Shown here: in pieces, positions 21,581 to 37,521 of the stretch
How positions within the stretch are numbered: the first letter of the stretch is position 1
How the letters are laid out: each line of letters begins with the position of its first letter
IMG/VR virus record: IMGVR_UViG_3300047160_005790
Coordinates: 24,285 to 88,284 of that record
Reading direction: 5' to 3' (one strand)
Source: a virus
Taxonomy: Duplodnaviria; Caudoviricetes
DNA length: 64,000 nt
Position numbers and translations under genes: made by a program
The notes under the pieces: generated by a model
What the model saw: the letters and a program-made list of their open reading frames with translations, nothing else
The model's database searches: none
What the model was told of the DNA's origin: nothing

Positions 21581-21781
21581 TCACATCGTCCTCGCACCGA
21601 TTGTGAAAGCGATTCTGTGAACTACAAAGCATCCTTGCCCTGACACCTTTATCCAGCCGTACCCGGCATCAAATGTTTTGCCAGGCCAGAGAAGGCAACG
21701 ATCGGTGCGCTCGATCTTCCCGCCGATAGCGAGCAAGAAAGTGGCGCGAGCTTCTCTAGTAATCGGCTTGAAGTTTGGCAT
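21581..21781 (-). pseudogene. Truncated HNH homing endonuclease (N-terminal part only)
   Basis: CLLWPG...GYGWI...VHRIAF, then stop before the HNH motif; A/T-richer. Confidence 0.65.
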
Positions 21782-24700
21782 TAATCTGCAAATGGGTCAA
21801 TTATCCAAAGATCAGACACATCTATTTGTCGCGTCGCTGTGTAGCCTTTTTTAACTCCTCGACAAAGCATGAGATCGTGACCGAGTCGCATGCTCCAAAG
21901 TGCTTCTCGGAACTTGGGATAGCGATACCTGTCGATCCTGAGGCTTAGCTGGTCAGTTTCGTCATCGCCGATACAAACGAGCCATTTGCTGAGGTGCGGG
22001 TCTTTCACTTCCTCCGGCTTCAGCTCGATGCCGGTCTTCGCGCGGTTGAACTCGAACAGGTCGCGTTCGTTCCGCATCTGAATAGCGCCGAGCCAGATAA
22101 CCGGGATGTCTTTGCTGCGGTGATACGGCAGGTCGATTGAAACGGTGACGGGCCGCGGCACATCCTTACCGAGCTTCTTCTCTCTGATCTCCTGCTTGAC
22201 GTGAGCGATAGCCTTGTCGAGCCACAGCGCGTGAAACGGATCGTCGCTTTCGCCGAAGGCTACGATGTTTTTGATCGTCTTGTGGCCGATACCCTTCACT
22301 TCGATCAGGCGGTTCCAGTCCACGTGATGTAGCTTCGGGTTGTGCTCGCCCTCGGCCTTGCGCCATTCGATGATCGAGGTGGCCGTCACTTCGCCTATGC
22401 CCGGTACCTGCGTGAACCCGGCGTACACCTTGCCGACGCCCCGGCGCCAGGTTCGTCCGCTACGGCGGACGTTCGGCGGCACGACATCGACGGACGGCCG
22501 GTCGCAAAGCGGGTTGCCGCGAACGGCGTCGCGGATCAGCATCGCGAGCTTGTCGCCCTTGCCCTGCTCGGCGGCGCGCGTACGGTGAGCGACTGAGGCG
22601 CGACCGCCGCGGATCTTGAACATCTCGGTGTAGAAAAGCTCCGGGTGATGCTGCTTGAACCACATTGTGTGAAAGCCGATCATCGTGTAGGAGTAGGCGT
22701 GAGCAGCGTTGTTGTGATGAACGACGCCGTTCGCGACGAAGTTGTGTTCGTGATCGAGCATCTCTAGCTCGTACACCCATTCAGTTTCGAGCCGCGCCGA
22801 AACGTTGACGACGGAGCTGATCGTTGTCGGCCTGCCCTTCGAGTCGCGCCTACGGCGTATCCCCATACCGTAGTCGAACTTCTTGTGATGGTGATTACAC
22901 AGGTACATCATGTTACTCGGCTTGTGGTAACGGGCGTAATCGCCATTGAAGTCGTCAAGCGTCAGGATATGAGCGTATTCCTCGCGACCGTGACAGGCGC
23001 CGTTCGTACCGGCATGTTCACAAACGCCCTTCGCTCGTTCGAGCACGGCAGCCTTCGCGACGCTCGCCAACTCAGTTCGTCCGTCGATCCAGCTGATATT
23101 GCCTTCGCCCGACTGAAAGCCCTGACCTTCGTACGTCGTGCGCATCGGCTGTTCGCGCTTCGCCGATGGCTGCGAATAACGATACGTCGGGTCTTGACAG
23201 ATGACTTCGTCGCCCGGCTGAAGTTCGCCGAGTTCTTTGTAGCCTCGATCCGTCAAGACGCGGTGTGGCAGCGTACCGGCGAACGTCATGCCGTTTTCAA
23301 GCGTCACGTCGTACACGATTTGCGGAACGTCGGAGCGCTTGATCGAAAGGAACTCGGCGGGCCGTATCCGGCAGTCTTCTGCCGACAACGACTGAATTTT
23401 GATGCGCTTACCGTTCTGGCCGTAGCGGAGCTTCGCGCCGAGCGATGTGTCGCTGTTGTATGCCTCCCAAAGCTCTTTGAGTGTGTAGCGTCCGTCGTGG
23501 TGTCGATTTGCCCCGCCGGTTTGTATAACGGCGTCGCCGGTTAGGCAGAATGCGTAAGAGCCCGCTGTGATGCACATGCCCCAGATTTTCGCGGCTAGCT
23601 CGTCGCCCATGTCGGGGTGTAGCTCGCGGGCGCCTTCGAGCGCGAGTTCCCACTTGCGGTTGAACGCCTGCTCACCGATCTTACGGCTGATGATGCGTCG
23701 GACTTCGGCGCGGTGCGTCCAGTCGAAGTTGAAGATCTCGCCGAGAATGCGAAGGATCTGCTCCTGGTACACGATCTGGTACTGTGTGTTCGCCGTGATC
23801 TTTTCGAGCGACGGGTGAATCAAGTCGGGCTTCTTGTTGCCGGCTTTGATGTCGATGTACTCGTTCGCGGCGCCGTTGTGAAGCGGGCCGGGGCGCGCGA
23901 GTGCGTTTACGTCGGCGCACTCTTTGAAGCTCGTCGGCACGAGTGCGCCGCAGATATATCGCATCGCGCGGCCTTCGAACTGGAAGACGCCGAGGCAGTC
24001 GTTGACTCGGAACCCGGCGAGCGTGCGCTCGTCGTCGAGCGGGATGTTGTACAAATCGTCGAGCTTCCAGCCCATCTCTAGGCGGCAGTTGTTCAGCATC
24101 GTCATGTTCGACAGGGCGAGAAAGTCGAGCTTCAAAAGACCCTGCTTCTCGGCGTCGTACTTGTCCATCGACACGACTTGCTGTACGCCTTCGTCAGTCT
24201 TGCGCTCGTAGACGGCGCACACGTCGGTGATCGGGCCGGTCGAGACGACGATGCCCGCGGCGTGTACGCCGAAGCCGCGATAGTTGCCTTCTAGCTCCAT
24301 GGCGATGCCGAGGTTCGGATGTCGCTCGAATACGCCGCGCGCCGTATCGAACGTCAGCACAGTGTCCTCGATCGTCGCCGAAGCGCGCAGGTCGCCGCTC
24401 GACCGCTCGATCAGCACATTCTTGACCTGGTCTACCTCGAACTTCGGGATCTTGTACACGCGAGCCACGTCGTCCAGCGAGTTCTTGGCCTTGTAGCCGG
24501 TGAACGTTCCGATGTTCGATACGCACTCGTCGCCGTAGATACCGGCGAGGTACTCGCGCACCTGGTAACGAGTTTCGCTGTCGAAGTCGATGTCGATGTC
24601 GGGCAAGTCCTGTCGGCTCGGGTCGATAAACCGCTCGAACACCAAGTCCTCGTACAGCATCGGGTTGACCTCGGTAATGCGAAGTAGCCAGCAGGCGAGT

Positions 24701-26022
24701 GAACCGGCGCTACTGCCGCGCGCGGGGCCGACGGCGATACCGCGACCTTTGTCGCCGTGGTCCTTCGCCCAGCGTATCGCGTCGCCGACCACCAGAAAAT
24801 AGTCCACGAAGTCTTTGTCCTCGATGACCTCGCACTCGCGTTCAAGTCGCTCGCGGTACCGGCGCTGCTCACCCCGAGGTAGGCGGTCGCAACGCCGGTA
24901 TCGCCAGCCCTCTTCGAGCAAGTGTCGCCAGTATTCGACCGGCGTGGAGAACTTATCCGGCAACGGGAAGCGAACCATAGGCAGGATCGGCAGTTCGACG
25001 TTGCAGCGGTCGTAGATTTCTTCGGTCGAGAGTACGGCCTGTACGGCTTGCTTCTTCGTGAGGCCGGTCGCTTGTAGCTTGCGCACCACCGAGGCGTCGT
25101 TCATCGGCGGGCAGAGGTTCGCCGCGTAGCCCCAGTCTCGCGCTTGCTCTTCTACGGTGTGCTTTCCGGATCGGACTGCGTGAAGTACCTGCTGTAGCTC
25201 TTTCTCGGTAGGCATTGTGTAGTGGCAGTCGAATGTTGCGACAAGAGGAATGTGTAGTTCCTCGCTAAGGTCCGCAATAAGCGCATTTGCTCGACGGGTC
25301 TCAGCAAGCTCCGGAAATGCCTGTACTTCCAAGTAGTAGTTACCGTTGAAATTTGCCTTAAAGCGACGAGCAAGAGCCTTCCCTCGTTCGTAGCTCGCAT
25401 CCTTGGGGGCCACAAGCTTGCCTCCCACCAAGGATGTGAAGAGCGCTGAACCTTGACAACCGGATAGCACCACCAGGCCGTCGCGGTGATCGCGCAGCAT
25501 GCTCCAATCCGCCGTAGGTTCATAGTAGTAGCCCTCCGCGTAGGTTCGGGACACGAGGCGTAACAGGTTGTTGTAGCCGCGAGGCGTCGAAGCGAGCACC
25601 GTGAGGTGGTTCTTACGTTGCGTAGCTTCCTCGCCGATTTTGCCTGTGTACAGCTCGACGCCGAAGATCGGCTTGACCCCCGCCTTCTGAGCAGCCTTCT
25701 CTAGACGTACGTGCGACGAGACGTTGCCATGTTCGGTCATTGCGAGCCCGCGCATGCCTAGCTCAGTCGCTCGGCGAACGTGAGCTTCCGGCAGCTGGTA
25801 GCCGTCGAGGTACGAGAAGGTACTGTGATGGTGAAGCGACACGAAGGTCATCTCACGTGAGCGGTTCGGCAGGCGCCGCGTCGCACGGTCTTTGCGAATC
25901 CACGGATACTGTTCGTGCTCGCACTCGCCGTCGCGATGAACTTCGATACGAGTCTTGAGGCTGTCGAGGCTGTCATCGTGCGTAAGCGTGCGTGTGCGAC
26001 GCGGTGACGTATCAGTCGCCAA
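21781..26022 (-). CDS. dnaE: DNA polymerase III alpha subunit (C family) with intein
   Basis: PHP SLHHHS, GPARGSSAGSL, PDIDIDF, GVHAAG, KLDFL, GVFQFEG, IVYQEQI, HhH and OB domains. Confidence 0.96.
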   Translation of the reverse strand: MATDTSPRRTRTLTHDDSLDSLKTRIEVHRDGECEHEQYPWIRKDRATRRLPNRSREMTFVSLHHHSTFSYLDGYQLPEAHVRRATELGMRGLAMTEHGNVSSHVRLEKAAQKAGVKPIFGVELYTGKIGEEATQRKNHLTVLASTPRGYNNLLRLVSRTYAEGYYYEPTADWSMLRDHRDGLVVLSGCQGSALFTSLVGGKLVAPKDASYERGKALARRFKANFNGNYYLEVQAFPELAETRRANALIADLSEELHIPLVATFDCHYTMPTEKELQQVLHAVRSGKHTVEEQARDWGYAANLCPPMNDASVVRKLQATGLTKKQAVQAVLSTEEIYDRCNVELPILPMVRFPLPDKFSTPVEYWRHLLEEGWRYRRCDRLPRGEQRRYRERLERECEVIEDKDFVDYFLVVGDAIRWAKDHGDKGRGIAVGPARGSSAGSLACWLLRITEVNPMLYEDLVFERFIDPSRQDLPDIDIDFDSETRYQVREYLAGIYGDECVSNIGTFTGYKAKNSLDDVARVYKIPKFEVDQVKNVLIERSSGDLRASATIEDTVLTFDTARGVFERHPNLGIAMELEGNYRGFGVHAAGIVVSTGPITDVCAVYERKTDEGVQQVVSMDKYDAEKQGLLKLDFLALSNMTMLNNCRLEMGWKLDDLYNIPLDDERTLAGFRVNDCLGVFQFEGRAMRYICGALVPTSFKECADVNALARPGPLHNGAANEYIDIKAGNKKPDLIHPSLEKITANTQYQIVYQEQILRILGEIFNFDWTHRAEVRRIISRKIGEQAFNRKWELALEGARELHPDMGDELAAKIWGMCITAGSYAFCLTGDAVIQTGGANRHHDGRYTLKELWEAYNSDTSLGAKLRYGQNGKRIKIQSLSAEDCRIRPAEFLSIKRSDVPQIVYDVTLENGMTFAGTLPHRVLTDRGYKELGELQPGDEVICQDPTYRYSQPSAKREQPMRTTYEGQGFQSGEGNISWIDGRTELASVAKAAVLERAKGVCEHAGTNGACHGREEYAHILTLDDFNGDYARYHKPSNMMYLCNHHHKKFDYGMGIRRRRDSKGRPTTISSVVNVSARLETEWVYELEMLDHEHNFVANGVVHHNNAAHAYSYTMIGFHTMWFKQHHPELFYTEMFKIRGGRASVAHRTRAAEQGKGDKLAMLIRDAVRGNPLCDRPSVDVVPPNVRRSGRTWRRGVGKVYAGFTQVPGIGEVTATSIIEWRKAEGEHNPKLHHVDWNRLIEVKGIGHKTIKNIVAFGESDDPFHALWLDKAIAHVKQEIREKKLGKDVPRPVTVSIDLPYHRSKDIPVIWLGAIQMRNERDLFEFNRAKTGIELKPEEVKDPHLSKWLVCIGDDETDQLSLRIDRYRYPKFREALWSMRLGHDLMLCRGVKKGYTATRQIDVSDLWIIDPFAD
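22711..23547 (-). mobile_element. Intein (279 aa) with HNH endonuclease, inserted at GSYAF/NAAH
   Basis: Starts CLTGD; T..H block B (GTLPHRVLT); ends VYEL...HNFVANGVVHHN; internal C..HI...N..LC.HH. Confidence 0.9.
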
Positions 26023-26030
26023 ATGTCCCC

Positions 26031-26207
26031 CTAGAACCAGCTGATGATTTCGTCGTTTTCGTCAACACCTTCATGTAGCCCTTCGTGGAACAACCCCTTC
26101 GCACATTCGACAATTTCTCCGTCCCGGTCGAGCGCTATATCGCACGGCCCGTACCCTAACGGGTCTTCCCGGTTGTCGCCGAAGCGGCCGTAGGTCACAT
26201 TACTCAC
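26031..26207 (-). CDS. Small acidic hypothetical protein (58 aa)
   Basis: GTGA overlap with thyX stop; not in the ORF track. Confidence 0.5.
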   Translation of the reverse strand: MSNVTYGRFGDNREDPLGYGPCDIALDRDGEIVECAKGLFHEGLHEGVDENDEIISWF

Positions 26208-26824
26208 AGTTCGAGTGCCTCTGCAATAACTGGTAAGTTGTCTTGAAAGATGGTTCTAACCATAACTGCGAGCGAGCGATGCTCTGTTTGTGTGTCTTCC
26301 GTCGTTCGCAAGGCGAGGTAGTGAATCCACGATCGGATCGTTCCGTTCATGTACAGCTTCGTTTGCGTCGATAACGGCAGCAAAAAACGAGCGCTCTCGC
26401 GAGCTATGCCGCGCTTTAGGGCTTCCCGGTATATCAAGAAGCTGCGCTGTATCACGACTTCCTGTGCGTCAATGAACCACTGTTGTTCATTGTCGGCTAA
26501 GTTGTCGATCGAGCTTTGTCGGTTGGAATCTGCCTGCCGGCGACCGAGGTAGCGAATGGCATCTTTCGGCGAGGCGTAACGCTGACTGAATTCCTGAAAT
26601 TTGAAACTGCCGTGCCGCAGAAACTGTGTGGCAATTGCTCGCGACGTTTCGATCTCTACGCACATATTCGCCATGTCGAACGGCGACCAGTGTTTCTGCC
26701 GAACGAGGAACTTGATGAGGTTTGTGTCTGTGTTTTCTTGATCACTCGATACGCGGGCGATGTACAGGATAACGGCTTCGGCGTCTGGCGTGATCCAGAC
26801 GAGGCGTGCGTTGCTTTGCTTCAC
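26204..26824 (-). CDS. thyX: Flavin-dependent thymidylate synthase (canonical type)
   Basis: IARVS, HWSPF, RHGSFKFQEFSQRY, E.ARFLLP, RSWIHY, TQ.EHR; GTG 26824. Confidence 0.92.
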   Translation of the reverse strand: MKQSNARLVWITPDAEAVILYIARVSSDQENTDTNLIKFLVRQKHWSPFDMANMCVEIETSRAIATQFLRHGSFKFQEFSQRYASPKDAIRYLGRRQADSNRQSSIDNLADNEQQWFIDAQEVVIQRSFLIYREALKRGIARESARFLLPLSTQTKLYMNGTIRSWIHYLALRTTEDTQTEHRSLAVMVRTIFQDNLPVIAEALEL

Positions 26825-27837
26825 TGCGGCCTCGGCTGTTCCTTGGTCGTTACGCCCGCCGTCGGGCTCGCCAACCATTCGGCCGGATCGATACCGCGGT
26901 ACGTCGGACCCTTCACACCTAGATGTGCCGGCCCGACAGTCGCCTCCCGGTCTAGGTGCCACTCGTCCGACGAGATGCCCAGGCGCGCGAATTCTTGAAC
27001 ACGGTCACGAATCGAGCAGCCGCGGTCGAGTTCCGACATGAAGGCGCAGCGCCCGAGCCGGTAGCAGATCGGCGTAAAGCTACGGACGCCCGGCGACGCA
27101 ATCAATTCCCACTGCCAGAAATCGACGAGGCTGTCCGGTGCAGGGTGGCCGATCGTTCGATACTTCTGTATTGCCTTCATCATGCCGAGGAAGACGGCTC
27201 GCCACTCGAACTGCGCCTGCGTACAGAGTCGGTTGCCCGCGGCCTCGAACAGCGCTCGCAGGTTCGTCGTGTAGATAATGCGAGTCGTCGTCGCGTGCGG
27301 CAGTAGGTAGCGCGCGTCCTCGGCCGGGATGCCCGCGTCGATCAGGGCGTTGTACGCCTTCTCGGCGGCTCGGATCGCGTCGGTGTAGATGACGAAGGCC
27401 GGTTCGTCGGCAGCGGGGCCGGGGATAATGCTCGGCGGTAGCGCCGCTTCCTTCGCCAAACCACGCTTAACGGCGAAGCGCAGTGACTCCTGAACGTAAT
27501 ATGCGCCCAAACGTTGTCTGACCATCTGATGGGTGAAGGAGCGCGTAACGCACTCGATCATGAACTTGACTTGTACGCCTTCGAGCGGCGTGTTGAGATG
27601 CGTCTTCATCAGCTCTTCCCACGCCCAGCGCCGCTCGTCGTTCGTGATCTCGGTAAGGCTATAGACAGGATCTCCGCGATACATCCTCATATCTGCGGCG
27701 AGGTTGCCGAGCGGGTCGGGCGTACCGCTCAACATGAAGACCTGCGGCACAATCTGCCGTGAGCCTTCCGCGCGTCGCATCGCTTGTGCTTCGTACATTG
27801 CATCGTCAGACCAACGAAGGATGTCCTTGCCGGTCAC
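26821..27837 (-). CDS. Divergent ThyX-like flavoenzyme
   Basis: TPLE, VTRSFTHQMVRQRLGAYYVQESLRF, EDARYLLP, NLRAL, RLC.QAQ.EWR. Confidence 0.8.
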   Translation of the reverse strand: MTGKDILRWSDDAMYEAQAMRRAEGSRQIVPQVFMLSGTPDPLGNLAADMRMYRGDPVYSLTEITNDERRWAWEELMKTHLNTPLEGVQVKFMIECVTRSFTHQMVRQRLGAYYVQESLRFAVKRGLAKEAALPPSIIPGPAADEPAFVIYTDAIRAAEKAYNALIDAGIPAEDARYLLPHATTTRIIYTTNLRALFEAAGNRLCTQAQFEWRAVFLGMMKAIQKYRTIGHPAPDSLVDFWQWELIASPGVRSFTPICYRLGRCAFMSELDRGCSIRDRVQEFARLGISSDEWHLDREATVGPAHLGVKGPTYRGIDPAEWLASPTAGVTTKEQPRPQ

Positions 27838-28160
27838 GTGACGTTTCCTCGCACGAGCCGCTTGCCGAACACGGAATAGTTGATGATGTCGTCGAACTCA
27901 CTGTTGATCTCGGCGACCATCGGTGGCTCCGGCTCGCCGCGTTCGAGCGCACTGATGACGCGGTCGATTTTGAATCGGATTGTGCGCGCTTGGTCGAGCG
28001 TCGAGTATTGCTTCCACAGGCCGCGTCGTATTCGCTCGCGTTCGACGTAGACCTTGAATGCGTCTTCGAGCGCTGCCGCATACTCGCCCAGGTCTTCGTC
28101 CGATATGTGAGCAGTATCTGGGTACTGAATGTCACCCTCGTTGTTGAACACGATGCTCAA
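27834..28160 (-). CDS. Nucleotide-modification-associated domain 1 (Nmad1/DUF1599-like)
   Basis: R...W......I..KIDR.......D.INYS helical pattern. Confidence 0.65.
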   Translation of the reverse strand: MSIVFNNEGDIQYPDTAHISDEDLGEYAAALEDAFKVYVERERIRRGLWKQYSTLDQARTIRFKIDRVISALERGEPEPPMVAEINSEFDDIINYSVFGKRLVRGNVT

Positions 28161-28984
28161 CCTAGTACCTCCCGGCTTACGTTGTATGCAACGTCAAAGG
28201 CATCGTTCAGCAAAACGCCGTGACGCCACTCCGCCCAGCGACCGGCGTGTACGAGCCCTCGCCAGCATGTACACGTGTTGCCGATCGCCTTTACGCCTTC
28301 GATGACGCCGTCGCCCTCGAAGCCGTAAGTGCTTTCGACGCTGCAACGGTCGCCGAGGATCGAGTAGCGATACCACACGTCCTCCGGCCGACCGTTGTAG
28401 ATGATTACCTCGCGCCCCGCTTCGCCGTCCGGCAGGGCGAGCGATTTGATCCAGTACGGCACAGACTTGAACGTATGCTCGTCGTCGGCGCAGAGGAAAC
28501 GTCGCGGCAGCGTATTGATAACGACTCGGAACAGCTTGAGAAAGTCCTCGATCATGCCCGGCTCGATCAGCAAGTGATGAATGTTTCGCTCGTAGCGTTT
28601 CCACAATTGATCGTACGCCCAAATCGCGTTCCAGCTCGGATAGCTCTGGCTGTAGTTCTCCCAGCCGGTCGCGTGCGAGGAGTCGCCGTACACCTTGCGA
28701 GCGTAGCCCTCCGGCGTGCCCATACGAACGACGTTCACGAGGTTGTCGGCGTAGCTCGGCGTCAGCTCTGGCACCGCGCGTCGTAGGTGTAGCGAGCCGG
28801 GGATCTCGGACTTCTCTTTGATGCTGTAGACGAGCGGTTCGCCGCCCGCGAGTCGTACGGCGTGCGCCGCGAGCAACCCTGCCGGGCCGCAGCCGAGTAT
28901 CGCGATGTCGTTCTTTCGCGACGTTCCTGGTTTGGGCCGGGCGATCGGCGGCAGCGTCGCTTCCCAGAGCCTCGTCTGACTCAT
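28157..28984 (-). CDS. FAD-dependent protein resembling UDP-galactopyranose mutase (Glf)
   Basis: IAILGCGPAGLLAA Rossmann motif; IIYN...WYR; C-terminal AGRWAEWR like Glf GRLAEY. Confidence 0.6.
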   Translation of the reverse strand: MSQTRLWEATLPPIARPKPGTSRKNDIAILGCGPAGLLAAHAVRLAGGEPLVYSIKEKSEIPGSLHLRRAVPELTPSYADNLVNVVRMGTPEGYARKVYGDSSHATGWENYSQSYPSWNAIWAYDQLWKRYERNIHHLLIEPGMIEDFLKLFRVVINTLPRRFLCADDEHTFKSVPYWIKSLALPDGEAGREVIIYNGRPEDVWYRYSILGDRCSVESTYGFEGDGVIEGVKAIGNTCTCWRGLVHAGRWAEWRHGVLLNDAFDVAYNVSREVLG

Positions 28985-29259
28985 TGCAACGGGCTCCCTT
29001 CGTAGCGCCCGCACACCAAGCCGAGCAGGAACATGTGGAATAGCATCGAGCCGATCGCCGGTTCGAGTTGCGGGTCCATGGCTCGCCAGGCTTGGTTGTA
29101 GCGCTTGCGTAGTACGTCGATCAGGTGGTGCTGAACGTTCGCGTACGCTTCCTCGCTGACCTTTAGCTGCGCCATTTGCCGAGGAACGCTGCCCGGCGCG
29201 AGGCCGTAGATCAGGCGGAGCGTACGCTCGCCGCGTTCCATCGCTTCGGCGTCGATCAT
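28981..29259 (-). CDS. Hypothetical protein
   Basis: Coupled ORF. Confidence 0.55.
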   Translation of the reverse strand: MIDAEAMERGERTLRLIYGLAPGSVPRQMAQLKVSEEAYANVQHHLIDVLRKRYNQAWRAMDPQLEPAIGSMLFHMFLLGLVCGRYEGSPLQ

Positions 29260-29263
29260 TCGA

Positions 29264-29506
29264 TCACCCCCTCTTGCTCAGCATTCTCTTCACGTTCGCC
29301 TTCCTGCCGCGCATGGCCCGCAAGCGTGCACGCTTCTGCGAACTGAGGCGCTTACGGACGGTGACCGGCGCGCGAGTTTGTTGTCGCTGCTCGGGCTTCG
29401 GCGGCTCGGGCAACGGATCGAGATTGCGCAGGAAGACATTTTCGTCGATCTTCTTCGGCTTCTCTGATTTGTTGCGTCGAAGAATGCCGATGGTCCGCTT
29501 CTTCAT
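29264..29506 (-). CDS. Highly basic hypothetical protein
   Basis: ATGA overlap with primase stop; R/K-rich. Confidence 0.55.
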   Translation of the reverse strand: MKKRTIGILRRNKSEKPKKIDENVFLRNLDPLPEPPKPEQRQQTRAPVTVRKRLSSQKRARLRAMRGRKANVKRMLSKRG

Positions 29507-32334
29507 AGGTCTTCCTCCCGCAACAGGGCGTGTAGGGTCGGAGAAATGCGAATGTCGCCGCTGATCTTCGTGACCATTTTGAGCGCCCACAGATGGTTGA
29601 TCGTGGCGTTCGCTTCCTCGCGGGCATAGTTCAACATTTCCTCGACGTCCTGCCGTCGGAAGTGACCTTGGTCTCGTAGGAACGTTGCGAGCCCAGGGCG
29701 CCCCTGTAGGAAGTCGATCGTCGCCTCGCGGTTGTCGAGCGCGGTTTGTATGTCGCCGCGCAGCTGCTTCGAGCGTTCGGCGTAGCCGAACGTCGGCATG
29801 TTGTACAGGTGATCCATGAAGCGAACGGCGTCACGAACGTGCGCCGGGGTGATGAGCAGTAACTCGTTCGACTTGTCGCTGCTGAAGGTGCGGGCCGCGA
29901 GCGCCGCCGAGACGCGGGCGATTTTGACCCGAATGTCGGCAGCTTGTACGAGCGGCGGGTCCTCGACGTAGCGCCTGCCCATATCGTTCGCCGCGGCCAG
30001 CACCGCTTCCTCGGCGCCGTCCGTCCAAATCACCTGGTCAGCTTGTCTCGTCCACGCCCACATCAGTAGGTTGTGACAGGCTTCGCTCGTGTAGGTCGCC
30101 GTACCGCTCGGCCGCGCCCGGTTGATGTCCTCGGGGTTGACGTCACCGATCGCGAGCGCCACCACCAGGTCGAAGCGGGCGATGTCCTCAGGGTTGCCGA
30201 TCAGCGGGCCGAGCGCTTGTACGCCGTAGGTGAAGTCGGCCATCTTCGCGTTACGCGGGTTGCTCATCCAGATCAGCCGCGTTCGAGCGTACGTCACTTC
30301 TTGTTGAATCTTCGTCAGACGGGCGACGCCTGCCGTTCGCACGTCGCTCATGCGAGAGATCTCTTCGGGCGAGAGGCCGCTCGCCTCGTCAAGTATCACG
30401 AGGCGGCGATCGTTGATGGGGATGGCGCCCCACGTCACCGTCCAATCGCGACCGCCTATTTGTTGCAGGCCGCCGACGATACCGGCGAAGCTCGCACTTT
30501 CACCACCAACGATCTCGCCAGCCCCGAGATGTCTGACGAGTTGAGTCGCCGCCTCGCTCTTGCCGGTTCGCGTGTCCCCGAGGATGAGGCTTTCGAGCCA
30601 CGCCTTCCGAATCATCTGCCCCGCAAACTTAAAGGAGAGTACGCTGTGAAACGTCAGGTCCATGACCGCATGCATTTCGACGCGCCCGATGATCTTCGTT
30701 ACCTGCGCCGCTAGCTCGCGGTTGATCTCGACTAGCTTCCTGAGCGGCCCTCGGCTGTCCGATCGGAAGCGGCTCATGAGCTTTACGCGCTCGGGCGTCA
30801 CTTCGAATCGGTCAACGCTCGTTTCGAGGCGCTCTAGTTCCCAGGCCAGGAACTCGTTGACCTGCGTATTCGGGTTCGCGAACAACGCGCCGGTGACATC
30901 GACAGTGTTGTTCGGCAGCGTGTCGTGGTGCCCGACGTTCGTGATCTTGATGTTCTTATAGTCCTGGGCCTTCGTGCCGTCGCTCTGGTCGATACTCGGT
31001 CGGCCGAACAACTGCTCGACTGCCTGATGTTCTGTAACGACGATGGAGAGTTTCTTACAACTCGGGGCGCCGTACTCCTGCCGCACGAGGTCTATGACGT
31101 TCTTCGTCGGCGTGTCGAGCATAGCGAGTATCGTTGGACTTTCCTTCGGTATCTCGATGACCGCGTCGCCGCTGGCCATTAACGGGCAAGTGTCGCAAGC
31201 CTTACCGGCGTCTCGCGAACACGTTAGGCGCGCGACTTTCGGCAGCGAGTAGCCGGGCTCCTTGCGACCCTTGATCGTGACCTGAATGTGAAGCGGCTTG
31301 CCGAGGTTGCGGGCGTCGAAGCTCTCTAGCACCGTCGCCGATATGACACCGACACCGTTCGTGTTTTGCTCGGTCTGCTTGTCCCAGGGCTCTGCCGTCG
31401 CGAGCAAGCGCTCGAAGTCGTTGCGGTCGTACTCGCGCCAGAAGTCGCTGAGGTCTTGGCCGTGCTTCGGTACGCGCGGGTACGGCAGGGCGATTACGCG
31501 AACGTCGGCGTTCTTGCCGAGGATGTGGCCGAGCTTGTTGTTCGCTTTGAAGCCTTTGTCGTCGCAGTCGTGCGCGAGGTAGACGACCATGTCCGAGAAC
31601 AACTCGGTCCACTTGCCGTTCCAGGAGTCGGCGGCGCCGGTGCGCGTGATCGCCGGGTAGCCGTTCATGATCGTGAGGATGATGTCCCACTCGCCCTCGC
31701 CGATGATGATGAACTCCGGCTTCGGCTTGATCTGTTGCATCGGGAACAGCGTCGGGCGGTTGTGCCCGGTAAGTCCCCAGATCTTGCGCCGGTTCGGGCC
31801 GGGGCGCGGGTTGTAGCGACGTACGTTGATCAGCTCGCCGTCGAAGTCGCGTACCGGGATCGTGTAAATGCCTTTGCTGCGATCCCAGCCGATCTCGAAC
31901 CTGATGATGCCGTCGGTCGTTATGCCGCGTTCGGCAATAAGCGCCTCGCGCTCGGCGTCGCTATTCATCAACACCGAGTGCCAAGCGCTTACTCGCGCCT
32001 CGCTCGGTTCTTCGGGCGGCTTGTCGCTGGTGCGATGCACGCCGCCGTTCGAGGAGACGGCGCCGATCGGCGGCCGCAACCATTCTTCCTGCCTCGCGAT
32101 CAGGCTGCGAACCGAGCCGCCCCCGCAACCAGCGTTGCAGTAGTAAACGCCCTTGTCAACGTTGAGCGTTGCCGATCGAACTACGTCCGCGATACCTTTG
32201 TCGCCGTGTAGCGGGCAATGTAGGTTGATCTCGCGCGTCGGCGGATCATCATACGTGTTGAGGTAGGAAGCATGGTCGCCGCCACCTTCGAGGTAGGGCC
32301 GCAACAGATCAAGTTGTCGTTTAGTTATCGGCAT
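29503..32334 (-). CDS. Primase-helicase fusion: Zn finger, Toprim and MCM-like AAA+ helicase
   Basis: CPLHGD...C..GC; IGEGEWD, HDCDDKG; GDTRTGKS, LVILDE, ARFDL. Confidence 0.85.
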   Translation of the reverse strand: MPITKRQLDLLRPYLEGGGDHASYLNTYDDPPTREINLHCPLHGDKGIADVVRSATLNVDKGVYYCNAGCGGGSVRSLIARQEEWLRPPIGAVSSNGGVHRTSDKPPEEPSEARVSAWHSVLMNSDAEREALIAERGITTDGIIRFEIGWDRSKGIYTIPVRDFDGELINVRRYNPRPGPNRRKIWGLTGHNRPTLFPMQQIKPKPEFIIIGEGEWDIILTIMNGYPAITRTGAADSWNGKWTELFSDMVVYLAHDCDDKGFKANNKLGHILGKNADVRVIALPYPRVPKHGQDLSDFWREYDRNDFERLLATAEPWDKQTEQNTNGVGVISATVLESFDARNLGKPLHIQVTIKGRKEPGYSLPKVARLTCSRDAGKACDTCPLMASGDAVIEIPKESPTILAMLDTPTKNVIDLVRQEYGAPSCKKLSIVVTEHQAVEQLFGRPSIDQSDGTKAQDYKNIKITNVGHHDTLPNNTVDVTGALFANPNTQVNEFLAWELERLETSVDRFEVTPERVKLMSRFRSDSRGPLRKLVEINRELAAQVTKIIGRVEMHAVMDLTFHSVLSFKFAGQMIRKAWLESLILGDTRTGKSEAATQLVRHLGAGEIVGGESASFAGIVGGLQQIGGRDWTVTWGAIPINDRRLVILDEASGLSPEEISRMSDVRTAGVARLTKIQQEVTYARTRLIWMSNPRNAKMADFTYGVQALGPLIGNPEDIARFDLVVALAIGDVNPEDINRARPSGTATYTSEACHNLLMWAWTRQADQVIWTDGAEEAVLAAANDMGRRYVEDPPLVQAADIRVKIARVSAALAARTFSSDKSNELLLITPAHVRDAVRFMDHLYNMPTFGYAERSKQLRGDIQTALDNREATIDFLQGRPGLATFLRDQGHFRRQDVEEMLNYAREEANATINHLWALKMVTKISGDIRISPTLHALLREEDL

Positions 32335-32342
32335 AGCTGAGA

Positions 32343-32374
32343 GGAGGGGGCCGGGATGGAGACCGACCCCCTCC
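32343..32374 (-). promoter_or_regulatory. 12-bp hairpin sequestering GGAGG just before the primase ATG
   Basis: GGAGGGGGTCGG/CCGGCCCCCTCC with one G-U pair in mRNA sense. Confidence 0.6.
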
Positions 32375-32378
32375 GCCG

Positions 32379-32654
32379 TCAGCCGGACCGTTTCGTCAAC
32401 CTACTCGCTCTGATTCCGAGCTTGCTGTACATCGCCTTGCGGACTTTGTAGAGCTCTTGTGCGAACGCACGAGGCTCAACGCGATACCGCCTCGCGTCGT
32501 ACTCGCGGACGATTTCCTCGAACAGTTCATCGGTCGAGTCGTCCGCGACGTCCCAGGCGACGGTCGTAGGGTTGACCAGATTCATAGTGAGCTGGTACCC
32601 GTTGAGGGAGAGCACGCTCGCCAGTGCGAGATCAGTTGTCGAGTAGCCCGACAC
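32379..32654 (-). CDS. DUF5659-like protein
   Basis: TTDLALAS.L...GY...VEP..F..EL..V. Confidence 0.55.
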   Translation of the reverse strand: MSGYSTTDLALASVLSLNGYQLTMNLVNPTTVAWDVADDSTDELFEEIVREYDARRYRVEPRAFAQELYKVRKAMYSKLGIRASRLTKRSG

Positions 32655-32669
32655 CGTTGCTTGGTCGTA

Positions 32670-33563
32670 CTACTCGTCGCCTTCAAACGGGTTGGAGCCG
32701 TCGTCCTCGCGCAAAACGGCGACCAGCTTGTCCTTCGAGAGTCGGCCGCTCGGCATGTCGAGCTTGCGGTCAGCGATCTCGTCCTTCAGCTCCTTGACTT
32801 CCCACTCGTCGTAGTCGTCCTCTGGAGCCGCTGCCCCGGCGCCGTCGCCGCCGCCCGACTCGTCGCTTTCGGTAAGGGCGTCGATGTACTTCTGCGTCGT
32901 CTTGCGGCCGCTGATTTCGAGGCCGCGCTCCTCGGCTTCCGCCTTCAGCTCATCGAGCGACCACGCCGAGTAGTCCTCCGGCTCGCCGCCGTCGGCGGCA
33001 GCGCCGTCGCTGCTCTGCGCCTCGTCGTCCTCGACAAGAATGCCGATCAACTTCGCACTCGTAGCGCGGCCGGTGATCTCGAGCCCGCGCTCCCCGATCT
33101 CTGCCTTCAAATCGTCGAGGGACCATTCCTCGTAGTTCTCCGGCCCCTCGCCGCCATCGTCGCCGTCGGCAGGCTCGTCGCCGTTGTCGCCGCCGCGCAA
33201 CGGCAGGAGGGTGCCAGCGCGGGCGACGTAGTTGCCTTCGTACGAGTCGCCGACGACCTTGACGCGCATCTTCTTGCCGACGATCTTGTCGGTGTCGATC
33301 TCGCCCTTGTCGCGTAGGCCAAGTGCCTTCACGAATTCCTTGAGCTTCCAGTCGCTGCGCTGGCTGAGGCCGATGTACGTGTGAACAGGCACATAGTCCT
33401 CGTCCACGAACTCCAGCGTCAGATGAATATCGTTCGCCGGGTCGCCGTTGGTCTTCTCGGTGCGCTGCTCAGCGTCGCGAATCGCCACCGTGTAGGTGCC
33501 GACCTTTGCGTGATCGCCGCTTCGTGACTCTACGTCAGAAACATCATACTTTATGCGTGCCAT
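32670..33563 (-). CDS. DUF669-like ssDNA-binding protein with three SAP/HeH-like repeats
   Basis: WKLKEF..ALG...IVGK.M.V; three copies of Y..W....LK.E...R.L. Confidence 0.7.
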   Translation of the reverse strand: MARIKYDVSDVESRSGDHAKVGTYTVAIRDAEQRTEKTNGDPANDIHLTLEFVDEDYVPVHTYIGLSQRSDWKLKEFVKALGLRDKGEIDTDKIVGKKMRVKVVGDSYEGNYVARAGTLLPLRGGDNGDEPADGDDGGEGPENYEEWSLDDLKAEIGERGLEITGRATSAKLIGILVEDDEAQSSDGAAADGGEPEDYSAWSLDELKAEAEERGLEISGRKTTQKYIDALTESDESGGGDGAGAAAPEDDYDEWEVKELKDEIADRKLDMPSGRLSKDKLVAVLREDDGSNPFEGDE

Positions 33564-34402
33564 CAGCTACTTCGCTCCCTTCTCGTAGTACGAGTCGATG
33601 TTCGACGTGCCGCCGGTCGTTGTGTTGGTCGGCGCCCCTCCCTTCGTTGCGGCGCGGCCGCTTGTCGCGCCTCTTCGATACCAGCCATGAACTTCTCCAT
33701 CGTCGGATCGACGATGTTGCCGTTCGGCGGGAAGGCGTTGTACTGATTCTTGGCGTAGACGTATTCAGTCTTCTGGGTACGCAAGATACGCTGGGTGATC
33801 TGCTTACCGCCGCGTTCCCGCTCGGCTACTTCGAGGTAGCCGACGACGTTCATGTAGCCGCAGACCTTCGAGATCATGCCCTTGCCCTGAATCCACGGTA
33901 GGCGCTTGATGCCACCGTTGTCCGACATCGGATCGGGCAGGTCTTCCGAGTGTGCCGTGATACCGAAGTTGAACATGTCGGGGCCGACCATGTAGCGCAC
34001 CCATTCGCCGATGCGCTCCATATTGATGCCGTACTCCAGCTTGTCGCGGCCGTACTCGCGTCGCTTCGGATTGCGGTCGAGCGTCTGCTCCCAGATGTCA
34101 TCGAGTCCGACATCTTGCCAGAGCGAGATCGAATCGAGCCACACCCAGTCCCAGTCGGCGCCGTCATGTCGGCAGTATTCGAGCGCCTCCCAGGCGTCTG
34201 TCCAGTTCTGTACGACCCATTCTTCGCAACCGCTGCCGCGAATCGGCTGAACTTGGTCGAGCGGCGGCCGGATGATGAGGATCTTGTAGCTGCGTCCGCC
34301 GGTGCCGATGAAGGAGGTCTTCCCGGCCGAGGGGTCACCGTGTATCAGGGCGCAGATGTGCTCGCGAGTCGAGACGGGCTTGATCGAGGGATGCTTCGCC
34401 AT
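33563..34402 (-). CDS. Sak4-like AAA recombinase
   Basis: IHGDPSAGKTSF, WVWLDSIS, TAH, YAKN. Confidence 0.82.
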   Translation of the reverse strand: MAKHPSIKPVSTREHICALIHGDPSAGKTSFIGTGGRSYKILIIRPPLDQVQPIRGSGCEEWVVQNWTDAWEALEYCRHDGADWDWVWLDSISLWQDVGLDDIWEQTLDRNPKRREYGRDKLEYGINMERIGEWVRYMVGPDMFNFGITAHSEDLPDPMSDNGGIKRLPWIQGKGMISKVCGYMNVVGYLEVAERERGGKQITQRILRTQKTEYVYAKNQYNAFPPNGNIVDPTMEKFMAGIEEARQAAAPQRREGRRPTQRPAARRTSTRTTRRERSS

Positions 34403-34641
34403 CAGGGTAGTTCACAAAGCAACGTCACGTAGGTGACGCCGCTGCCGCCGAGGGTCGTTTCCGGGTGGTCGTTGTAGAAGAACGTGCGCTCCTTCACCTT
34501 CAACGCGAAGTCGATGCCGCTTTCGTCCCGGTAGCCGATGATCTCGTCGGGCAACGGGATCGGTACGCTCTCGGCGCCTTCGATCACGTACTCGAATTCC
34601 TTCATTTCTGTTTCATGTTTGATGTGAAGCTCGACTCTCAT
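34402..34641 (-). CDS. Hypothetical protein
   Basis: Coupled ORF. Confidence 0.55.
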   Translation of the reverse strand: MRVELHIKHETEMKEFEYVIEGAESVPIPLPDEIIGYRDESGIDFALKVKERTFFYNDHPETTLGGSGVTYVTLLCELP

Positions 34642-35012
34642 GATTCCTCGATTTCCTCGGCTTCGGCGTCAACCTCGTTCGCCGGGTCCAGAGCCTCGAA
34701 GTGATCGTGAATGGCACTGCCCGTTAGCGCCGACGGCGCCGTGCGTGGTTGGTTGACGCGGCCGGTCTTGATCTGCCCGGCTACGTCGAAGCTGATCACG
34801 AGATCGTGGTCGAACTCCATCGTGACCAAGTGCCCTTCGTTCCTCATGCGCGTCAGGGTGCGACCGACGAGCGCGTTTTGCCCGAAGATATCACCTGAGA
34901 TGCGCCCCGCTAGCGCCTCGGTCGCGACAGCTTCCTGATCGCCTTCGAACGTCACCTTGGTCGTTTTTGGCCCGAATTGTTGGGCGGGCCGTACGTCGTC
35001 TTGTTCGCTCAC
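34638..35012 (-). CDS. Hypothetical protein
   Basis: AAGGAGG SD; coupled. Confidence 0.6.
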   Translation of the reverse strand: MSEQDDVRPAQQFGPKTTKVTFEGDQEAVATEALAGRISGDIFGQNALVGRTLTRMRNEGHLVTMEFDHDLVISFDVAGQIKTGRVNQPRTAPSALTGSAIHDHFEALDPANEVDAEAEEIEES

Positions 35013-35163
35013 GTTGTCGCCCCCTCCTTGTAGGGTGGAGCGCTCGGTTGGGTAGGGTCGCCCCGGTCACAGGGCGGGGGTAGGACCGAGCGCTCCGTCG
35101 AGGCGGCACTGCGCGCGGCTCCCCTCAGCAAGCAGAGCAGCACCGCCTCGGCGCAACGTTCGA

Positions 35164-36015
35164 TCATCGGAAGAACTCCGTCGCCATCACGACGTCCTTC
35201 ATTTCGAACACCCAGGCCTCCTTTACAGCGCGGTACGCCGCCTCGCCGATCCAATCTCCGAACATGAGTCGCCACTTACAAGCGAAGCGCTTGCTCGGGT
35301 GACTGACGTACTTCGGCCAAAGCTCGTATGCGATCTCGTGGCAGCGCTGTTCGAGCGTCGCTCGCTGATCGACACCGCCTGCGAAGCCGGTAATGCCGCC
35401 GGGGTCCTTCGGCTTGTTGACGGACTTGATGTGAAGGCTGGTCGAGACGTACCACATATGACCGGCGCGTACGATGCGACGGCCGATCTCCGACGTATCG
35501 TGGTACACCGTCAGCCGCGGCTCGAAGTTGCCCGCCAGCAAAGCGATCCGTACGCTGATGGCCATTGCCTTGTCCTTCGGAGCGCCGGTCGCGAGGCAGA
35601 GGCCGGGTTCCTTCGCTAGCTCGTTGCCGTTCGGGTACCAGAGGCCGTAGGGCGGCATCCAGCCGCCGCACACGCCGCCGCGCCCGGCCGCGACGAATTC
35701 AAGCAGCGGCCGAACGTCGCCGCCGGTCGGGCGCGTATCGTCGTCCGCCTGTATGAAAGCATCCCAGCCTAAGCGGTTCGCGAGCAACACACTACTGGCG
35801 CGGGCGTAGCCGACGCCGCGGTTGCTACGCTGATGATGATAGATTCGAACGTTGCGCCCGAGCCCCAAGTGCCGCACTTCCAGGTCGTAGTCGAACACTT
35901 GCTTGCGTTCGGTCAGTATGAGGATCGGAACGTCTTGTTCGACCCAGAACGGTAGCGTCTGCGGCAGGATGTCGTGAGCGCGGTCGCGGCTGAGGATGAT
36001 GACGCCGCCCTTCAC
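35164..36015 (-). CDS. GT-A glycosyltransferase of the TET-associated (TAGT/GREB1-like) type
   Basis: IILSRDR...T, GVGYAR, IQADDD, PGG...R......WP.YV. Confidence 0.7.
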   Translation of the reverse strand: MKGGVIILSRDRAHDILPQTLPFWVEQDVPILILTERKQVFDYDLEVRHLGLGRNVRIYHHQRSNRGVGYARASSVLLANRLGWDAFIQADDDTRPTGGDVRPLLEFVAAGRGGVCGGWMPPYGLWYPNGNELAKEPGLCLATGAPKDKAMAISVRIALLAGNFEPRLTVYHDTSEIGRRIVRAGHMWYVSTSLHIKSVNKPKDPGGITGFAGGVDQRATLEQRCHEIAYELWPKYVSHPSKRFACKWRLMFGDWIGEAAYRAVKEAWVFEMKDVVMATEFFR

Positions 36016-36305
36016 GTTGACGACACCTTGCGCAACGCCTGATCTACGCCGCGGCGGGCTTCGTGTAGCCAGCGTTCGACTTCGCTACGGCGCCCGCGCA
36101 ACGTGAAGTGATGGCTCGACGCCTCGGCCGCGTAGATGAACTGAACGGCCGCGTACGGCAGCGGCACCTTGACCACGTAGTCGTACTCGGGCGGCAACGG
36201 AGTATCTCGTCGCCTCAAAGCGTTACCTTCGCTGCGAATACCATCGTCGCGAAGCCGAACAAGAGCACTGCCGTCGCTAAGGTACGTCGGAACCACACTC
36301 GCCAT
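36012..36305 (-). CDS. Hypothetical protein
   Basis: AGGAGG SD after a 10-bp hairpin. Confidence 0.55.
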   Translation of the reverse strand: MASVVPTYLSDGSALVRLRDDGIRSEGNALRRRDTPLPPEYDYVVKVPLPYAAVQFIYAAEASSHHFTLRGRRSEVERWLHEARRGVDQALRKVSST

Positions 36306-36390: not shown

Positions 36391-37521
36391 TCATCGACGC
36401 TCTCCCTCGATCTCGTACGTTGTGTACGGATCGTAGTGAACGAGGGTTCCGTCGATAAGTTCTTGGTAGTCGTTGCCCGTCTCGTGTAGCTCGCAGATAT
36501 CGAGCAGGTGACAGAACGGGCAGTTCATCTGACTCGGTGACTTGTCGGGAACTTCTTCGCCGTTGCGCATGCGCTGCATCCGGTAGAACTCTCGGAGCGC
36601 GCGGCTGCGCACCTGGCCCTTTTCAAATTCGTCGCGATACACCGGGTGACGAACGAAGTAGGGCGGCGGCTGCTTCTTGCTAATGCCGCCGTCTTTGTTG
36701 AGGCTCTGCCCTTTCTCGTTCTTCGGCCGATCGTCCGGCATCGCCTTGCGAAGGAAGTTGAAGATCATTCCGGCGAGCTGCTGCCGGGGCCGGAGGATTC
36801 GGTTGTCGTATAGCCAATCGACACCCCACGTCCAGTACGCGCTGGCTTGCTCATCAAGGCGTAGATAGCGCGTGTCGATTCGGCTCTTGTTCGTCGTTTT
36901 GTGATCCGGCAGCCACAACTTGCGGGTCGAGCGATTCTTCCACAAGCCGTCGAGCGTGCCGACGTAGATGAACAGCGGCTTGCCGTCCGGATCGCTGACG
37001 ATCTGATAGAAGGGCTGCTCGGTCGCGAGCACCTCCCATTCGTCATCGGCGCCGAACGTATCGACGTAGTTGTTGAGTATTGCGACGCCTAGCTCGCCCG
37101 CGTCGTGCCACACCGTCTCGTCGGCTTCGTCGATGTACTCTCGTATGTCGAAGCCGCCGACCGCCTCCCGCTCGGCAGTGTACAGTTGTTCGAACACCCC
37201 TGCCGGGTGCGGGCCGCGTTTGATGCCGGGCTTGTAGTAGGCGGCGAGCGCTTGATGTATCAGGGTGCCGAAGCGCAGCGCCGGGCGATCGGTGCGCGCC
37301 CGCCTTTGCTCGACGTAGCTCCAGTACCATTGCCACTCGCAACGCTTGAACGAGCTTCGCTCGCTCGTGCGCAGCATCGGGAGGGCCGCAGCCCGAGGAC
37401 CGCGGGATGAGGGTACCGCGTCGGCGCGACGGCGGCCCTCCCCATGTTGCTCAGCGTTTCGAGTTTCAGCTGTAGCTGCCTGTCGAGCCGCTCGCGTACG
37501 GTGACGAACCGTAGTAGACAT
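36391..37521 (-). CDS. PD-(D/E)XK RecB/Cas4-like exonuclease
   Basis: F.RC..QW, FGTLIH, GTLDG...DHKT, Q...Y, C..C...C. Confidence 0.85.
   Translation of the reverse strand: MSTTVRHRTRAARQAATAETRNAEQHGEGRRRADAVPSSRGPRAAALPMLRTSERSSFKRCEWQWYWSYVEQRRARTDRPALRFGTLIHQALAAYYKPGIKRGPHPAGVFEQLYTAEREAVGGFDIREYIDEADETVWHDAGELGVAILNNYVDTFGADDEWEVLATEQPFYQIVSDPDGKPLFIYVGTLDGLWKNRSTRKLWLPDHKTTNKSRIDTRYLRLDEQASAYWTWGVDWLYDNRILRPRQQLAGMIFNFLRKAMPDDRPKNEKGQSLNKDGGISKKQPPPYFVRHPVYRDEFEKGQVRSRALREFYRMQRMRNGEEVPDKSPSQMNCPFCHLLDICELHETGNDYQELIDGTLVHYDPYTTYEIEGERR

Follow-up and report, generated by a model that had tools for sequence, protein, structure and literature searches.

What does a phage make with a divergent copy of the flavin-dependent thymidylate synthase ThyX that is coupled to a small flavoprotein and kept among its replication genes? 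The question is raised by an uncultured soil phage (Duplodnaviria; Caudoviricetes; IMG/VR record IMGVR_UViG_3300047160_005790), in which such a ThyX paralogue, here called ThyX2, and the flavoprotein share a minus-strand gene block with a putative DNA glycosyltransferase (GT). The window analyzed comprises 64,000 nucleotides, bases 24285-88284 of the 88,284-bp viral record, which was judged complete, and all positions given below for this phage refer to the window.

An initial annotation of the block had proposed that a hydroxy(methyl)pyrimidine is made at the nucleotide level, incorporated by the phage DnaE, and then decorated with a galacto- or arabinofuranose, the flavoprotein acting as the sugar mutase. 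The present analysis keeps the outline of nucleotide-level hydroxylation followed by glycosylation, with a ThyX paralogue and a TAGT-like GT-A enzyme lying beside DnaE in a co-directional replication block, and drops the furanose. The account that we put forward, tentatively and aware that it may well be wrong, is a pre-replicative route to a C5-hydroxy(methyl)ated deoxyuridine monophosphate (dUMP), followed by glycosylation of the DNA. Read in this way, the module hints at an undescribed modified DNA base.

The ThyX2-Flavoprotein Module

The genes of ThyX2 (26821-27837), a 108-aa Nmad1-like protein (27834-28160), the flavoprotein (28157-28984), and the GT (35164-36015) are all present on the minus strand where the initial annotation had placed them, and the translational coupling that it had described across 26821-28984 is borne out by 4-nt start/stop overlaps read in the sequence. 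These are ATGA between a 92-aa open reading frame (ORF; orf92, 28981-29259, minus strand, no Pfam or PHROG match) and the flavoprotein gene, TTGA between the flavoprotein and Nmad1-like genes, GTGA between the Nmad1-like and ThyX2 genes, and again GTGA between ThyX2 and a second ThyX gene, ThyX1 (26204-26824, minus strand), which had been overlooked.

ThyX2, with 338 aa, corresponds to the "ThyX-like thymidylate synthase" of actinophage annotation. It scores 120.5 bits on Pfam Thy1 (PF02511; cut-off 24.8) and matches the T. maritima ThyX structures at E 4e-7, and in the alignment to T. maritima ThyX the dUMP-binding Arg/Ser/Arg and the Arg of ARxxLP are retained. Its divergence lies in the canonical RHRxxSxxxxSxRY motif, which in ThyX2 reads RQR-LGAYYVQE-S-L-R-F, with His replaced by Gln, a one-residue insertion, and Tyr replaced by Phe. 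These changes are common to the whole family (VRQRTA..QESMRFAVK in the family alignment), and a C-terminal extension of the protein bears four conserved Cys.

ThyX1 is a canonical enzyme of the PBCV-1 type (Thy1 141 bits; E 2e-53 to PBCV-1 ThyX, PDB 2cfa/4fzb). Its motif reads RHG instead of RHR, a single Arg-to-Gly change relative to 2cfa. Because the G+C content of its gene (52%, and 63% at third codon positions) is below that of the neighboring genes (~61% and 75-80%, respectively), ThyX1 is probably a recent acquisition, and its later addition argues that ThyX2 is not a mere supplier of thymidylate (dTMP). No ThyA-family gene was found in this genome, and a search for Tet_JBP, which also covered the 11 viral contigs that carry a related GT, gave no match; its control genomes are without the family, so that its sensitivity is unproven. 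ThyX2 is therefore the sole visible source of a hydroxylated base.

The pairing of ThyX2 with the flavoprotein extends well beyond this phage. In a tblastn survey across 50,697 phage records, the flavoprotein was found in 126 cultured actinophages (Gordonia 46, Microbacterium 36, Mycobacterium 32, Streptomyces 9, Arthrobacter 2, Nocardia 1) and the ThyX2-specific C-terminal segment in 111 cultured actinophage records (Gordonia 46, Microbacterium 36, Mycobacterium 28, Nocardia 1); in the Streptomyces phage Gibson, one gene is annotated as ThyX-like. The two proteins are tightly coupled, co-occurring nearly one-to-one in these 111-126 phages. Their genes are adjacent or close, beside DnaE, in the Microbacterium phage Haunter and in Onyinye, PBI1, and Gibson, while in Wojtek the flavoprotein gene adjoins DnaE and ThyX2 lies beyond the stretch examined. 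A nucleotide search with the 10-kb block against cultured phages gave no match.

The 108-aa protein had been described as Nmad1/DUF1599-like, a resemblance that is weak. DUF1599/Nmad1 (PF07659) is the best Pfam match in 5/5 homologues (best E 2e-4), with 17.5 bits for the protein of this phage, under the cut-off of 25; no match was obtained among solved structures. The gene directly follows that of the flavoprotein in the closest relatives (L042, L048, and L049), where the gene on its other side is that of ThyX2 or DnaE. In most relatives, belonging to other lineages, the same slot after the flavoprotein is taken by a HAD phosphatase with a DxDGT motif, for which NCBIfam and PDB searches gave no specific substrate. 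Some relatives also carry a classical short-chain dehydrogenase/reductase (SDR) adjoining ThyX2 and a dCMP deaminase adjoining the GT; the HAD, SDR, and deaminase genes are absent from this genome. The accessory genes encode enzymes of the nucleotide pool, and this points to chemistry on dNMPs or dNTPs. Individual cases are a Nudix hydrolase after ThyX2 (L042:9423-9779), a HAD phosphatase with weak NT5C similarity and a classical SDR on one contig (L027:17772-18494 and L027:15880-16575), and a dCMP deaminase (L028:6223-6717). The c42 ORF of relatives was considered as a further Nmad1-like homologue and rejected, as it is not homologous.

Nature of the Flavoprotein

The flavoprotein, annotated as "oxidoreductase" in cultured actinophage records, belongs to a virus-specific family (phrog_8720, E 6e-39; 164 homologues; protein-atlas clusters 95-100% viral) and was modeled by AF2 with a pLDDT of 92.9. 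It is a minimal protein of the flavin adenine dinucleotide (FAD) type, with GCGPAG near the N-terminus and AGRWAEWR at the C-terminus, where E. coli Glf has GGRLAEYK at the matching place. The initial annotation had called it Glf-like on these ends, and in terms of fold the resemblance is real. The top Foldseek match is a UDP-galactopyranose mutase (UGM; 3mj4, E 1e-8), and in VIA-align the first 17 places are taken by UGMs (Z 14.1-15.5, 250-256 of 275 residues aligned, root-mean-square deviation 3.5-3.9), the best of them having Z 15.5, a deviation of 3.6, and 252 aligned residues. Non-UGM folds follow close behind, a PhzS-type hydroxylase at Z 14.1 and D-amino-acid oxidase and TetX at ~13, and the lead of the UGMs over the aromatic hydroxylases is less than 1.5 Z.

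Membership of the UGM family fails, as judged by profile, length, and residue comparisons. A search of the whole genome at E<=10 yields nothing for Pfam GLF (PF03275), the controls being matched, and the flavoprotein has no Pfam family at all at E<=0.01. An hhalign comparison with E. coli Glf gave a probability of 1.2%, the Rossmann motif alone being aligned. With ~250-275 aa, against 367 aa in E. coli Glf, the protein is ~110 residues shorter than bacterial UGMs, and the helical UDP-binding domain therefore cannot be complete. From the C-terminal GLF motif GGRLxxYxYxDM, the family keeps G-R-x-A/G-x-W, and the positions of Glf Tyr346 and Asp348 (our own numbering of the E. coli sequence) are occupied by His and Val in the flavoprotein and vary across the family. 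Viral GLF clusters nevertheless have 167-173 features in common with it in an atlas search. The family is best described as a predicted UGM-like core without the UDP domain, and it would be a new enzyme class whichever reading of its function holds.

Conserved Cys sets are found in both partners, Cys-x4-His...Cys-x-Cys in the flavoprotein and the four Cys of the ThyX2 extension, as compared in L002, L038, L039, L041, and contig G010. A redox or Fe-S relay shared between the Cys3His and Cys4 sets was considered and rejected, as either set disappears as a whole and without the other, that of the flavoprotein in G010, Onyinye, PBI1, and Wojtek, that of ThyX2 in Haunter. The two are probably separate structural metal sites.

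The Glycosyltransferase and Its Co-occurrence with the Module

The GT is encoded 6 kb upstream of the ThyX2, Nmad1-like, and flavoprotein genes on the same strand, and its AF2 model (pLDDT 95) has a GT-A fold. The motifs SRDR, DDD, PGG, and WP coincide with columns that do not vary across its family (R12, D91-93, G206-207, and W233, respectively), and at the "ED" position of the TAGT active-site motif R...DDD...ED(Y/F) this clade has D-T-S-E. Among viral folds, it is best matched by TAGT-domain proteins (E 3e-11) and a beta-glucosyl-hydroxymethylcytosine (HMC) alpha-glucosyltransferase. As a query, the GT gave no Pfam match at standard search and no sequence match among the solved structures in the PDB. 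An exhaustive search retrieved 109 relatives (a word-index search, 2), and of the 58 full-length homologues used for the family tests, 52 match Pfam TAGT (PF20691) at E<=0.01; among ten sampled homologues, five are above the cut-off of that profile. On this sequence and model evidence, the GT is a peripheral TAGT-like GT-A enzyme, and its acceptor is predicted to be on DNA. Glycosylation of DNA bases by JGT-like GT-A enzymes has been shown experimentally; enzymes of this kind act on hydroxymethyl bases, and their genes are accompanied either by TET-type dioxygenases or by thymidylate-synthase homologues and dCMP deaminase (bioRxiv 10.1101/2023.12.21.572611). Two TAGT genes in tandem (L045:2487-4275) represent a distant relative of the GT, and their neighbors encode a DUF732 protein, a glutaredoxin, and a Prim-Pol/D5_N primase.

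The GT is distributed differently from the module. Searches by tblastn with the GT, and with the distant TAGT homologue P0199, found no match in any cultured phage. The GT family profile was likewise without a match when run on the right arm of Haunter and on the loci sampled from Onyinye, PBI1, Gibson, and Wojtek. Pfam TAGT has no match over the whole Haunter and Onyinye genomes, unrelated glycosyltransferase families not being excluded in all genomes. The module is also present without the GT in the closest relative, the metagenomic L048, where the family profile gave no match and the interval between Cas4 and AAA_24 holds only an 86-aa ORF. An alignment of 10 close GT sequences was used to find GT-bearing contigs, which gave 11 viral contigs, 9 of them long enough to judge. 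These carry the flavoprotein in 9/9 cases, a ThyX2-type gene in 8/9, and ThyX1 in none of the 9; in contig G011, the GT gene directly abuts that of the flavoprotein. The GT clade is thus seen only in phages that have the ThyX2-flavoprotein module, and the module itself occurs without the GT. Such asymmetry fits a GT that acts on the product of the module.

Proposed Pathway and Alternatives

ThyX chemistry passes via an exocyclic methylene on dUMP, and acid quench gives 5-hydroxymethyl-dUMP. The scheme that follows is our inference throughout, from substrate and chemistry to DNA as the target of the GT and the very existence of a modified base. It starts from dUMP, which ThyX2 and the flavoprotein would convert to a C5-oxygenated nucleotide before replication. 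Two candidate products can be envisaged, namely 5-hydroxymethyl-dUMP, if water captures the exocyclic methylene intermediate, and 5-hydroxy-dUMP, if flavin hydroperoxide chemistry is used. The flavoprotein would act as the partner of ThyX2 (reductase, oxidase, or hydroxylase) and not as a pyranose-furanose mutase, while the canonical and recent ThyX1 would supply ordinary dTMP. The modified nucleotide would be incorporated by the phage DnaE, and in this phage and a minority of its relatives the TAGT-like GT-A enzyme would glycosylate the hydroxyl on DNA with a host nucleoside diphosphate (NDP) sugar, as an optional downstream step. In an established case, flavin-binding ThyA homologues hydroxylate dCMP with O2 to 5-hydroxy-dCMP, which is then glycosylated (PMC13326640).

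Several points weigh against this pathway. The genome was found to contain no thymidylate kinase or phage dNMP kinase, and we know of no published modified base for the cultured carriers, for example the cluster D mycobacteriophages. The GT, which the initial annotation had taken for a TAGT enzyme on TAGT-like motifs, itself scores 15.1 bits on the TAGT profile against a cut-off of 27.5; the TAGT matches of its family span profile positions 1-90 of 205 only, i.e., the N-terminal part, and a GT-A fold by itself leaves the acceptor unnamed. The GT-bearing contigs come from related phages, and the co-occurrence does not represent independent events. ThyX2, finally, is the sole thymidylate synthase in most carriers and keeps most dUMP-binding residues, and may simply make dTMP. 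In one alternative, ThyX2 is an ordinary, if divergent, dTMP synthase, the flavoprotein is a dedicated NAD(P)H-dependent flavin/folate redox helper, and the target of the GT is unrelated, be it virion proteins, a polymer of the host envelope, or some other site on DNA. Consistent with it, ThyX2 is the only thymidylate synthase in Haunter, in the examined loci of Onyinye and PBI1, and in each of the 8 GT-bearing contigs with such a gene, the module stands without the GT in the examined loci or genome arm of five cultured phages and in L048, and the distant TAGT homologue of L045 lies on a 12-kb contig without a ThyX gene. Actinophage glycosyltransferases, among them those of cluster F and O mycobacteriophages, are, moreover, reported to glycosylate virion proteins. 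We consider plain dTMP supply a serious contender, although on balance an unlikely one. It sits uneasily with the acquisition of a canonical ThyX1 by the same phage and with the fact that ThyX enzymes normally oxidize NADPH unaided, with no need of an extra flavoprotein. The slot beside the flavoprotein always holds a gene of the nucleotide phosphohydrolase type (HAD or Nmad1-like, with a Nudix gene after ThyX2 in L042), which would be superfluous for dTMP synthesis. The nearest viral folds of the GT are those of TAGT and HMC-glucosyltransferase-type proteins, and its clade is confined, as seen, to module-bearing phages.

Two further readings assign the flavoprotein a different chemistry. According to the initial annotation, it would be a Glf-like NDP-sugar mutase feeding the GT, such that the base carries galactofuranose or arabinofuranose. 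The lead of the UGMs in both Foldseek and VIA-align, the resemblance of the C-terminal GRWAEWR to GRLAEYK of Glf, the features shared with viral GLF clusters, and the abutting genes in G011 all agree with this, and a precedent exists in the Rhizobium phage RL38J1, which has a true UGM beside its DNA glycosylation genes (PMC13326640). We nevertheless find it improbable. PhzS-type hydroxylases, D-amino-acid oxidase, and TetX come within a small Z margin of the UGMs, the GLF profile and hhalign comparisons are negative, the chain is too short for a complete helical UDP-binding domain, and the Tyr and Asp of Glf are neither present nor replaced by conserved residues. In addition, the flavoprotein is kept in 126 cultured phages, none of which yielded a homologue of this GT, and this argues against a sugar mutase, since such an enzyme would need a transferase. 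A still more remote reading, to which we give very little weight, is an amino-acid-adduct route, where an amine captures the methylene intermediate of ThyX2 (as in MnmEG) and the flavoprotein is a FAD-dependent C-N oxidase similar to MnmC1 or PaMx11 gp47, yielding an aminomethyl-type base, with the GT unrelated or acting elsewhere. FAD-dependent lyases of the D-amino-acid-oxidase fold do act in thymidine hypermodification (PMC8989533), and the folds matched by the flavoprotein include those of D-amino-acid oxidase and N-methyltryptophan oxidase (Z 11.8-13). On the other hand, no gene for a 5-hydroxymethyldeoxyuridine DNA kinase or an aGPT-Pplase-like protein was noticed in Pfam scans of the block, tblastn with the flavoprotein gave actinophage proteins only, with no close relative in phages such as PaMx11, and the restriction of the GT to module-bearing phages would be left unexplained.

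Returning to the favored C5-hydroxy(methyl)-dUMP pathway, its widest form would be that a ThyX paralogue and a minimal UGM-fold flavoprotein make a non-canonical pyrimidine nucleotide in more than 100 cultured actinophages, with a GT step in some of them, as the first ThyX-based DNA hypermodification. We regard this generalization as doubtful, though worth stating for what it would imply. To our knowledge, every pre-replicative pathway of pyrimidine hypermodification described so far begins with a paralogue of the ThyA family, and a ThyX route would be a second, independent invention, by covalent flavin chemistry. It would explain the pair of "oxidoreductase" and "ThyX-like" genes that has stood unexplained in more than 100 sequenced actinophages, and would mean that well-known cultured phages, the cluster D mycobacteriophages included, carry an unrecognized modified base. 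DNA modification affects restriction, CRISPR targeting, and sequencing, and some of the carrier actinophages are phage therapy candidates.

Organization of the Replication Block

All long ORFs from ~42500 down to 21781 are on the minus strand and tightly packed. In the direction of transcription, the block starts with an SNF2 helicase, a Cas4-like nuclease, a 97-aa ORF (orf97), and the GT, which is followed by three small ORFs and an AAA_24 ATPase. Next come a DUF669/SAP protein, a primase/MCM-like helicase, two small ORFs, the flavoprotein, and the 108-aa protein, and the block ends with ThyX2, ThyX1, a 58-aa ORF, and DnaE with an intein. The initial annotation had placed the GT in the same operon as the module. 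The genes are co-directional and no terminator-like site was seen on the minus strand from 38500 to 26400, and a single operon from the GT to the ThyX genes is therefore plausible.

The DnaE-type DNA polymerase III alpha subunit (21781-26022, minus strand) is identified by Pfam DNA_pol3_alpha (227 bits) together with PHP, finger, and Intein_splicing domains; its intein (Intein_splicing 37.7 bits) has an HNH-like segment inside. The phage does have its own DnaE, as had been claimed, although the gene is outside the span of 26821-36015 given for the pathway. The 943-aa gene inside that span (29503-32334, minus strand) encodes instead a primase/MCM-like replicative helicase, with a weak MCM match and 40% identity to a 922-aa orthologue in G011, the orthologues being annotated as Zn_ribbon_DnaG/MCM and "DNA primase/helicase". 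Between the GT and the module, the Pfam-assigned recombination genes of the DUF669/SAP protein and the AAA_24 (RecA-like) ATPase occupy 32670-34402 on the minus strand. The former (32670-33563, minus strand) is single-strand-binding-like and, unusually, is fused to a SAP DNA-binding motif (residues 197-222).

Upstream of the GT, the Cas4-like PD-(D/E)XK exonuclease (36391-37521, minus strand; PDDEXK_1 46.8 bits) is a syntenic anchor, with orthologues in 11/11 GT-bearing contigs. By coordinates, the GT start codon overlaps the stop of the 97-aa ORF (36012-36305) in the NTGA style of the ThyX block, and the GT is probably translationally coupled to this protein as well. The 124-aa ORF directly downstream of the GT (34638-35012, minus strand) has a match to the N-terminal domain of formamidopyrimidine-DNA glycosylase (E 0.007, 17 bits, under the cut-off); if the match is real, this would be a DNA-base-handling protein next to the GT.

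Relation to Known Systems

Pathways that combine a thymidylate-synthase homologue with a glycosyltransferase are already known, as are furanose sugars on phage DNA (PMC13326640), the latter being a precedent for the idea of the initial annotation. In the literature searched, we found no ThyX-family hydroxymethylase combined with a glycosyltransferase or with a flavoprotein partner of the present kind, which would set the version proposed here apart.

The classical pre-replicative pathways are those of the T-even/SPO1 type, based on a ThyA-family dCMP or dUMP hydroxymethylase, to which the T-even phages add DNA glucosyltransferases. The pathway proposed here would have in common with them a thymidylate-synthase paralogue at the nucleotide level, incorporation by the polymerase, and a transferase acting on DNA, as well as accessory nucleotide hydrolases and a dCMP deaminase, found in this case in relatives. 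It would differ in that the paralogue is from the unrelated, flavin-dependent ThyX family and has an obligate-looking flavoprotein partner, and in that the transferase is a TAGT-like GT-A enzyme.

Closer in chemistry are the 5-hydroxy-dCMP synthase and arabinofuranosyl transferases of RB69 and DLP3 (PMC13326640), where flavin chemistry at the pyrimidine C5 is likewise followed by glycosylation. RB69, DLP3, and RL38J1 differ from the present phage in using ThyA homologues and full-length UGM or arabinose-nucleotide enzymes (PMC13326640). The UGM of RL38J1 scores ~50 against solved UGMs (table in PMC13326640), whereas the flavoprotein here reaches Z 15.5 and has no GLF match. With the Glf/UGM enzymes in general, the flavoprotein shares an FAD domain and a beta-sheet domain, the N-terminal GxGxxG, and a C-terminal GR-x-A-E-aromatic-basic motif, while it is shorter, lacks the GLF profile match and the substrate Tyr/Asp, and occurs in phages without a detectable GT homologue.

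The GT resembles the TAGT/JGT-like GT-A enzymes (PF20691; PMC8256090; bioRxiv 10.1101/2023.12.21.572611) in its GT-A fold, the R...DDD motif, the viral fold matches, and transitive homology, and the pairing of dCMP deaminase with the GT in relatives is as in the ThyS-linked GT-A pathways. It differs in being under the Pfam cut-off, in matching with the N-terminal half only, in having D-T-S-E in place of "ED", and in the lack of a TET/JBP match. The partner is here of the ThyX family, which is mentioned in neither PMC8256090 nor bioRxiv 10.1101/2023.12.21.572611.

The nearest systems are found in the cultured actinophages, among them the Mycobacterium phages PBI1, PLot, and Onyinye, the Microbacterium phage Krampus, the Gordonia phage Wojtek, and the Streptomyces phage Gibson. 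They differ from the phage described here in having a HAD phosphatase in place of the Nmad1-like protein, no detectable GT homologue, and no second, canonical ThyX. Common to all of them is a homologous flavoprotein (28-34% identity) that is combined with ThyX2 in the same DnaE/Cas4/RecA-like replication module.

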